From NCBI RefSeq assembly GCF_057098645.1, contig NZ_CM169472.1: a stretch of DNA of 64,000 nt, one strand, 5' to 3'. Position numbers: made by a program. This document shows positions 12,001 through 15,000 of the stretch, piece by piece (position 1 is the stretch's first letter; every line of letters starts with the position of its first letter).

Positions 12001-15000
12001 TCGGCATTAAGCAGGCGACGATTTCCAATTTCGAAAACAACCCTGACAATACCACGCTCACGACATTTTTTAAGATTTTACAGTCACTTGAACTCTCAAT
12101 GACACTATGCGACACGAAAAATGCCTCGCCAGAATCAACAGAACAGCAAGATCTGGAGTGGTAATGCCTAAACTTGTCACTTGGATGAACAACCAGCGGG
12201 TAGGCGAGTTAACGAATACCCGAAGACGAAACCGTAACGCGTCCGATAATGGCATGGGAAAAGCTTACTGAAGCCAGACTTGAAGAAGTATTAACGGCTT
12301 ATAAAGCAGATATCCCGCTAGGCATGATTAGAGAAGAAAATGACTTTCGCATCTCGGTTGCTGGCGCACAGGAGAAGACAGCGCTGCTCAGAATAGGCAA
12401 TGACTGGTGCATTCCGAAAGGAATAACGCCGACGACGCACATCATTAAATTACCGATTGGGGAAATCAGGCTGCCCAATGCGACGCTCGATCTCAGCCAA
12501 AGCGTTGATAATGAGTATTACTGTCTGCTGCTGGCGAAAGAACTTGGGTTGAATGTTCCGGACGCAGAAATCATTAAAGCGGGAAATGTGCGTGCGTTAG
12601 CGGTCGAACGTTTTGACAGGCGTTGGAATACTACTAGATTCTCCCTTGGTTTCTGTTGGTGCGCATAATGTATATTATGTTAAATCGCATCTGAGTGATA
12701 CGAAGTGATTTTCCGGTAGTCGTTATTCGTTCAGGGTTCCAGAACTTAAGCCTCTCCTCTTTCATAATTGGCCTGTGCATGACGGATATAGGCTGGCTGG
12801 TATGCAGATTTGCCGTTTGCCGCATCTTCCCAGCGTTGAAGACTCAAGCTGGTAAACCGCGTGCAAATGAGCACGCCCTCTTTCCATCAACACTCCAGGC
12901 AGCTTGCGGGAATGAGTCCACTCCGGTATCAGAAATGGCTACGTCTCAATGAAGGCTACGTCTCAATGAAGTCAGGCGAACGATGCTGAATGAACATTAC
13001 GATGTCACCACAGCAGCCTATGCTGTCGGTTACGAAAGCTTATCCCATTTCAGCCGGGAATATTTGCGGATGTTTGGAGAGTCACCTAAGAGAGATATTA
13101 CCAGGTTAAGAAAGTCTGTCGGTCAGCTTTAATAAACCCTGCACTTATCTGTTTAGAGCAATTCGGTGTTAGTTACACCAGGCAAACATTAACTATAGCT
13201 AATGATTTATAGCCATATAAACCATTAGTAGCCCTTGACCTTTCCTGACACTTCCCTTGTTCGCAATAATATTCTGTTTAGTCACGGTTTATAAATAACA
13301 TGCATAATGAAATCGTCATGTTATTTAGCGACATAAAATGTTTTTGCAAATACTCTCTTCAACAAGTGCAGCAATAAACTTGTTGTGACTAGGTGTCCTT
13401 GTGATTTAAAGATATTATCGTTCTTCGTGAAATGTAATAACCCTGGAAACTATATTATCAGGGCAACAACCAATCAAGAATGATTCTTGTTTTATAAGCA
13501 ATAACAGAATGACTTAATTGTTAACTCTCTTTATTCAGCTACTTAAATATAAATTTTGGAGAATTATGAAACTCAAACATGTTGGTATGATTGTCGTTTC
13601 TGTGTTGGCGATGTCGTCTGCTGCGGTAAGCGCAGCCGAGGGTGATGAATCAGTAACGACCACTGTTAATGGCGGTGTTATTCATTTTAAAGGTGAAGTG
13701 GTAAATGCCGCTTGTGCGATTGATTCCGAATCAATGAACCAAACGGTTGAGCTGGGTCAGGTTCGTTCTTCTCGCCTGGCTAAAGCGGGTGACCTCAGCT
13801 CCGCCGTTGGCTTCAATATCAAGCTGAATGATTGTGATACCAATGTTTCCAATAATGCAGCTGTTGCATTTCTGGGTACTACTGTCACCAGTAATGACGA
13901 TACGTTAGCGCTGCAGAGTTCAGCGGCAGGCTCTGCCCAAAATGTCGGTATCCAAATTTTGGACCGTACGGGTGAGGTATTAATACTTGATGGTGCCACT
14001 TTTAGCGCTAAAACTGACTTGATTGATGGCACGAATATACTGCCGTTCCAGGCTCGTTATATTGCACTCGGGCAGTCCGTAGCTGGTACTGCAAACGCAG
14101 ATGCGACCTTCAAAGTTCAATATCTATAATTCAATCTTAAGGTGGCTATACGTCATCTGAAATTGAAACAGGGTGTGTGTGGCATGGCTACACACACCCG
14201 AGCAATTCACCAATGTGAATCTCATTATTAATGAGGAGTGGTTTGTATTTGGAGCGCTATGAAAAATCACATAATATCTAAACTATCAATAAACAATAGT
14301 AGTTAAACTTACTGTTATTAAAAATATTTACTTTTTAGCAAGGTTTTCCTATTAAAAGAGAACCAACATTTATTACAAACGCATTAAGTCTGGAAACCCG
14401 GCGACTCGCCAATGTATTAGCAACATTTACCGATTGTCTGATGTAACGGTTTTCCCGCTTATCCTCTTAACACATGGAGAATGCATCAGATGCAAACTAC
14501 GCGTACCCCCTACTCTATTTCCTTTATGGCGACAGTGTTACTTTTATTGCTCTTTGCTTGCCATAGCACCGTTGCCAACGCAGCTGTCGCACTGGGTGCG
14601 ACGCGGGTAATTTATCCGGCAAACCAGAAACAGGTTTTATTGCCTGTCACGAATAATGATCCTGCCAGTGTCTATCTCATTCAGTCATGGATAGAAAATG
14701 CAGGTGACCAAAAAGACACCCAGTTTGTCATTACCCCACCGCTTTTTTCCATGCAAGGTAAAAAAGAGAATACGCTGCGGATAATCAACGCCACTAATCA
14801 TCAGTTACCAGGCGACCGTGAAAGCCTGTTCTGGGTGAATGTTAAAGCTATTCCTGCTATGGAAAAAGACCAGAAGAATGAGAATACATTACAGCTGGCA
14901 ATTATTAGCCGCATAAAAATGTTTTATCGCCCCACGAACCTGGCAATGGCACCTGAAGAAGCGCCTGCAATGCTTCGGTTTCGTCGCAGCGGTAGCAAAC

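Follow-up and report, generated by a model that had tools for sequence, protein, structure and literature searches.

A 17-bp tandem duplication splits the AraC-type gene remnant beside the F9 fimbrial operon in the Escherichia coli O145:H28 lineage

An AraC-type gene fragment close to the F9 (fml/yde) fimbrial genes has been described in two E. coli backgrounds. For K-12, a PeerJ survey described YneL as carrying an AraC-type domain and being annotated as a pseudogene, and stated that microarray data show a yneL signal (PMC9308461). The O157:H7 counterpart, ECs2114/Z2199, was termed a "cryptic CDS", assigned to the AraC-like family and bearing an HTH_18 domain; the same paper treated ECs2114 as a "putative regulator" of F9, reported minimal expression of its promoter fusion in O157:H7 in every condition tested, and named the F9 major subunit gene fmlA/ECs2113 (PMC7766294). 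The two genes represent one locus and the same C-terminal AraC-type remnant, annotated without an N-terminus. We analysed this locus in a 64,000-nucleotide stretch of contig NZ_CM169472.1 (assembly GCF_057098645.1), hereafter the window, where the remnant, which we take to be yneL (b1506) of K-12, carries a tandem duplication. K-12 yneL departs from the window copy in its 5' segment and in carrying a 1-bp deletion, whereas the O157:H7 gene differs in having an uninterrupted single-copy frame. The locus, its pseudogene status and the O145 frameshift are already recorded in the RefSeq annotation, which labels the O145 copy "frameshifted; incomplete"; no description of the lineage specificity reported below (25 of 5,426 genomes) was found in the literature searched.

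Window positions 12600-13400 were 100% identical to E. coli O145 strain RM9872, in which the gene order is autotransporter pseudogene, hipB, hipA fragment, AraC-type remnant, fimA-like major subunit, chaperone and usher. The remnant annotated in RM9872 maps to window 12846..13132, and PGAP begins the CDS at the equivalent position. The remnant with the duplication sits between the hipBA remains and the F9 operon, and a K-12-like genome carries the same remnant between hipA and ydeT. The features of the region are as follows.

12217..12632, plus strand: internal hipA fragment between two deletions
12781..12845, plus strand: candidate upstream trace of the gene, in the third frame (DGYRLAGMQICRLPHLPSVEDSS; GYRL...VED)
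12846..12953, plus strand: 5' segment of the AraC-type remnant (KLVNRVQMSTPSFHQHSRQLAGMSPLRYQKWLRLNE), with the first helix-turn-helix motif (HTH_18 positions 6-35)
12937..12953, plus strand: copy 1 of the 17-bp unit GGCTACGTCTCAATGAA, spanning the final two bases of a Trp codon and the LRLNE codons
12954..12970, plus strand: copy 2 of the unit GGCTACGTCTCAATGAA; the period-17 match runs on for 1 nt to G12971
12956..13132, plus strand: 3' segment of the remnant (LRLNEVRRTMLNEHYDVTTAAYAVGYESLSHFSREYLRMFGESPKRDITRLRKSVGQL, then a stop), with the second helix-turn-helix motif (HTH_18 positions 42-76)
13566..14129, plus strand: F9 (fml/yde) major subunit gene, PGAP fimA in RM9872 (3967-4530), ~430 bp downstream of the remnant

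The tandem duplication and its reading frames

The sequence GGCTACGTCTCAATGAA occurs twice in perfect head-to-tail tandem at 12937..12970. The preliminary description had claimed this perfect duplication, and both direct reading of the sequence and TRF bore it out; TRF placed it at 12937-12971 with a period of 17, 2.1 copies, 100% matches and 0 indels, and it was the sole tandem repeat with a score of at least 50 in the 64-kb window. By simple arithmetic, a chance 18-base match at period 17 is expected 9e-7 times per window (64,000 x 4^-18), and the expectation summed over 500 periods is still below 1e-3 per window. The junction k-mer of the two-copy allele is CTCAATGAAGGCTACGTCTC.

As 17 is not divisible by 3, the duplication shifts the frame and a stop follows 12 codons past the junction. 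The 3' segment is offset from the 5' segment by 17 nt, which amounts to a shift of -1, and the frame of the 5' segment closes at TGA 12987..12989. In particular, the two-copy ORF (12861..12989) ends in ...LRLNEGYVSMKSGERC and a stop, reproducing the quoted translation and the early termination first read from the sequence, and a second ORF (12983..13132) begins MLNEHYDV. When one copy was deleted in silico, the frame read ...AGMSPLRYQKWLRLNEVRRTMLNEHYDVTTAAYAVGYESLSHFSREYLRMFGESPKRDITRLRKSVGQL up to the stop codon at 13130..13132. This repaired 91-aa sequence matched positions 1-76 of 80 of Pfam HTH_18 with an E-value of 1.3e-20 and 73.9 bits (cut-off 33.6), and also reached 27.0 bits against HTH_AraC (cut-off 26.6) and an E-value of 8e-8 against the AraC-type domain of PDB entry 3mn2. 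The claim that a single copy yields a continuous AraC/XylS DNA-binding domain was thus upheld by the HTH_18 match.

The two actual ORFs cover only HTH_18 positions 6-35 and 42-76, respectively, so the linker that joins the two helix-turn-helix motifs is where the frame breaks; the first half alone scored 19.5 bits, under the HTH_18 cut-off. A C-terminal domain with two helix-turn-helix motifs, as in AraC/XylS proteins, was present only after in silico removal of one copy, and in the window as it stands the halves of the domain lie in different frames, so that the gene is not intact. A tblastn search with the Klebsiella-type protein P0012 gave the same picture: two HSPs were obtained, residues 103-138 at 12846..12953 (frame +3) and residues 134-191 at 12956..13129 (frame +2), and the stretch common to both, residues 134-138 (LRLNE), corresponds precisely to the duplicated codons.

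Origin and decay of the AraC-type remnant

The closest longer homologues of the remnant were the Klebsiella-type proteins P0010 and P0012 (72-73% identity). P0012, P0010 and P0059 all carry AraC_N (PF06719), which precedes HTH_18 in P0010 and P0012. Regulators of this AraC_N plus HTH_18 architecture include YqhC of E. coli. On these domain matches, the remnant derives from a YqhC-like regulator of the AraC_N plus HTH_18 type but is no functional member of that family. The earlier claim that the N-terminal domain had been lost was confirmed, as tblastn with P0012 aligned residues 103-191 only, and searches with P0012 and P0059 against window 12001-13400 gave no match for residues 1-102 (AraC_N). 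No intact orthologue was found, the protein search giving only fragments of at most 193 aa among the best 120 hits. Against NCBIfam, the hits were weak and sub-threshold (RhaS, RclR and other AraC equivalogs), with no specific equivalog.

The stretch at 12781..12845 may belong to the same gene, which would imply an older frameshift near 12846; the hint is faint and comes from a 112-aa query (the 12781..12845 frame joined to the repaired remnant), of which 99% was covered by P0010 and P0012 at 72-73% identity. No separate tblastn HSP was obtained for this short stretch, and no AraC_N sequence was found upstream of it. Three predicted proteins from E. coli-like contigs (P0007, P0001 and P0002) are ORFs of 120-139 aa that start with MRSDFPVVVITSGFQ... 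in the block equivalent to 12695..12780 and continue in frame into a full HTH_18; P0007 occurs on 87 contigs. The ~120-bp block at 12660..12780, upstream of the remnant, is kept in all aligned E. coli lineages whatever precedes it; further upstream lie hipA in some lineages and a carboxymuconolactone decarboxylase-family gene in B2-type genomes. The minus strand of this block contains ATGAAAGAGGAGAGG and a 63-aa ORF (12634..12825). An Rfam scan of 11700-13700 at E<=1 gave no RNA family. A promoter and terminator scan of 12600-13600 gave no promoter hit at the duplication and no terminator, the only promoter-like hits being generic AT-rich ones in the fmlA upstream region.

In the Klebsiella-type contigs (L015 5855..6576; L016 5187..6116), the regulator homologue is itself split into an AraC_N fragment of 39 or 82 aa and a 191-aa ORF. 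It is divergent from an alpha/beta-hydrolase gene and has no fimbrial neighbours.

Several observations bear on the state of the gene when the duplication arose. PGAP annotated the N-terminus as missing in every E. coli copy examined ("incomplete; missing N-terminus"), and the remnant is truncated relative to its full-length homologues. Independent lesions were found in separate lineages: the 17-bp duplication in O145, a 13-bp deletion in strain UTME-3, and a 1-bp deletion in ij001 (L005 3942..4150) and the K-12-like genome (L006 3264..3472). In the latter two, the 5' segment of ~130 bp is unrelated to the O145, O157 and B2-type sequence. NG86 estimates of dN/dS between lineages were 0.42-0.87, calculated from only 4-16 differences in 89 codons and statistically compatible with 1 or with ~0.3. 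Such values are above those of typical E. coli core genes. A Phe-to-Ser change (HQHF to HQHS) within the first helix-turn-helix motif is present in O145 and UTME-3. Against a dead gene stand the O157:H7 single-copy allele, which retains an uninterrupted ORF of ~89 codons with candidate start codons, the yneL microarray signal stated for K-12 (PMC9308461), and a dN/dS that, on no more than 13-16 differences, is below 1. Taken together, the evidence says that the gene was not alive when the duplication struck. The preliminary description had called the duplication an inactivating lesion; the frame break is real, but "inactivating" was overstated, since the N-terminal domain had already gone in all E. 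coli examined, which makes the duplication a secondary lesion.

Distribution and history of the two-copy allele

The distribution of the duplication was surveyed with a 43-nt query that spans both copies and the junction and can seed only on the two-copy allele. It matched 25 of 5,426 complete E. coli genomes, in every case at full length and with 100% identity. Nineteen of these carriers are labelled O145, O145:H28 or O145:NM, and the other six records give no serotype; the sources are cattle, produce, water and patients from the US, Canada, Japan, Korea and Spain. All 25 carry exactly two copies, with no one- or three-copy variants despite SNP divergence. A 104-nt single-copy query was contiguous in ~4,170 complete E. 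coli genomes, so that the single-copy alleles whose existence had been put forward as a check are indeed present; among them, O157:H7 is 100% identical to the query and has identical flanks. In an alignment of eight lineages, the extra 17 nt occur solely in the O145 sequence (copy 1 is missing from 7/7 non-O145 alleles, as well as from UTME-3), and WLRLNE occurs once in every E. coli lineage other than O145 and in the Klebsiella homologues. The single copy elsewhere, the Klebsiella homologues and the Pfam profile establish that the two-copy state is derived from an ancestral single copy.

Very probably, the duplication arose spontaneously in an O145:H28 ancestor as a neutral secondary lesion of a pseudogene already in decay, and has been inherited vertically. 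An AraC_N plus HTH_18 regulator would first have lost its N-terminal sensing and dimerisation domain. In the O145:H28 clade's ancestor, a mistake in replication or repair would then have duplicated 17 bp in the linker between the helix-turn-helix motifs, shifting the frame into a stop 12 codons on, and the allele would have passed down vertically with no expected phenotype. The biological weight of the event is small, as it adds one more lesion to a dead gene and is of an ordinary kind. Its junction is, among the 5,426 complete E. coli genomes, specific to the Shiga-toxin-producing O145:H28-type clone and might be used as a PCR or k-mer marker for it, and the duplication separates the O145:H28 lineage from its nearest single-copy relative, UTME-3.

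It is also conceivable that the single-copy ECs2114/Z2199-type allele (~89 aa, no sensor domain) is a working stand-alone DNA-binding-domain protein that regulates F9 in trans, in which case the duplication would be a lineage-defining loss of function or a reversible on/off switch, and F9 expression in O145:H28 would differ from that in O157:H7. The location of the remnant, on the same strand as the F9 major subunit gene and ~430 bp upstream, the open frame across both helix-turn-helix motifs in the O157:H7 and B2-type alleles, and the 120-139-aa ORFs ending in an HTH_18 domain in some E. coli lineages (P0007 on its 87 contigs) are compatible with such a role, as is the label given to ECs2114 (PMC7766294). 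Tandem duplications can also revert precisely, and UTME-3 is single-copy. However, expression from the ECs2114 reporter was minimal in every condition tested (PMC7766294), the remnant has at least three independent frameshifts across lineages and a dN/dS of 0.4-0.9 (from few differences), and the HQHF to HQHS change affects the first motif in O145 and UTME-3. The constant two copies in 25/25 carriers, with no switching variants, speak against an on/off switch, and the F9 adhesin gene in the window is itself interrupted by a Tn3-family element. The Klebsiella homologue, fragmented as it is, adjoins a hydrolase gene and not fimbrial genes, which argues against an ancestral role in F9 regulation. 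If the remnant did regulate F9, the lesion could add to adhesion differences between O145:H28 and O157:H7; the evidence argues against this, and we regard both the regulatory role and the reversible loss as quite improbable.

The hipA deletions and strain UTME-3 help to place the point of origin. Relative to intact hipBA, hipA in the window carries two deletions, one of 257 bp at 12216/12217 and one of 645 bp at ~12630. The junction of the second deletion was found in 26 of 5,426 complete genomes, namely the 25 duplication carriers and UTME-3. The UTME-3 remnant (L009 1757..2013) has the lineage SNPs and a single 17-mer, downstream of which lies a separate 13-bp deletion (GCCGGGAATATTT, flanked by GC). 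In 34.6 kb of flanking alignment, three carriers share four sites to the exclusion of UTME-3 and one site (window 10187) conflicts, so that local SNPs (27-35 kb) place UTME-3 with weak resolution. Private SNPs are most numerous in UTME-3 (13), and site 13871 joins 4/4 carriers tested, including the window. The simplest reading, modestly supported by these sites, is that the duplication would have had a single origin after the hipA deletions and after the split from the UTME-3 lineage.

An older duplication, predating the split of O145:H28 from UTME-3 and followed by precise excision of one copy in UTME-3, would agree with the sharing of both hipA deletions and the remnant SNPs between UTME-3 and the carriers, and with the conflict at window 10187. 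We give it hardly any credence, as it requires two events where one suffices, and both the four sites that favour a carrier clade exclusive of UTME-3 and the 13 private SNPs of UTME-3 stand against it.

An assembly or sequencing artefact, or an ancestral two-copy state with deletion in the other alleles, can practically be dismissed: assemblers can in principle miscount short tandem repeats, and no other support for an artefact was found, but the identical junction in 25 complete, independent assemblies from different laboratories and platforms excludes the assembly error that had been named as a possible refutation, and the single WLRLNE of every other E. coli lineage in the alignment, found in the Klebsiella homologues as well, with the unbroken HTH_18 fit of the single-copy version only, refutes the ancestral two-copy state.

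The surrounding region is decaying generally, with a frameshifted autotransporter gene, hipA with its two deletions, and insertions of IS and Tn3 elements. Within 11898..12632, hipB is intact and hipA is destroyed, leaving an orphan antitoxin gene; the hipBA lesion of O157:H7 is different, as hipB and the 5' end of hipA are gone. A segment of ~1.05 kb (7176..8228) with IS3-family transposase ORFs (HTH_Tnp_1; rve) lies within the large autotransporter pseudogene, and a 1,195-bp IS5-like element (31940..33134) with a DDE_Tnp_1 transposase on the minus strand (32086-33066) interrupts yddA; neither is present in the other O145:H28 genomes compared. A 3.8-kb Tn3-family element (19846..23632) interrupts the ydeQ/fmlD-like F9 adhesin gene at its 3' end, replacing the last ~27 codons, and carries a resolvase gene (20020-20652) and a gene for a 988-aa Tn3-type transposase (20633-23599). 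This element is missing from other O145:H28 genomes, and its junction occurs in 0 of 5,426 complete E. coli genomes, so the strain of the window lies outside that collection.

Mutational mechanism and comparison with known systems

A copying error during replication or repair is the natural explanation of the duplication. Slipped-strand mispairing, proposed in the preliminary description, is a plausible mechanism, but its classical form, between flanking repeats, found no specific support: the junction microhomology is 1 nt, a G that both opens the unit and comes directly after it, and no inverted repeats were found around the duplication, which leaves no hairpin-based explanation. A longer microhomology, AATG...AATG, was considered and rejected, as its spacing is 14 nt and not 17.

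Upon comparison with known systems, the O145 allele resembles the short tandem duplications that arise as spontaneous frameshifts. As in those cases, a short unit whose length is not a multiple of 3 is repeated perfectly head to tail, and the change is fixed in one clone with the single-copy ancestral state in its relatives. In classical slippage, the direct repeats on either side are several nucleotides long, and the O145 junction, with 1 nt, differs in this respect. Contingency loci, in which phase-variable simple sequence repeats occur, likewise have a repeat within a reading frame that toggles the frame. In contrast to these loci, the O145 remnant contains a 17-nt unit just twice, a copy number that is constant across the 25 carriers, and the gene it lies in is cut short in every E. 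coli copy examined. The AraC_N plus HTH_18 regulators are similar in their C-terminal domain, which in P0010 and P0012 is 72-73% identical to that of the remnant; unlike them, the remnant has no AraC_N and its DNA-binding domain is split by the frameshift.
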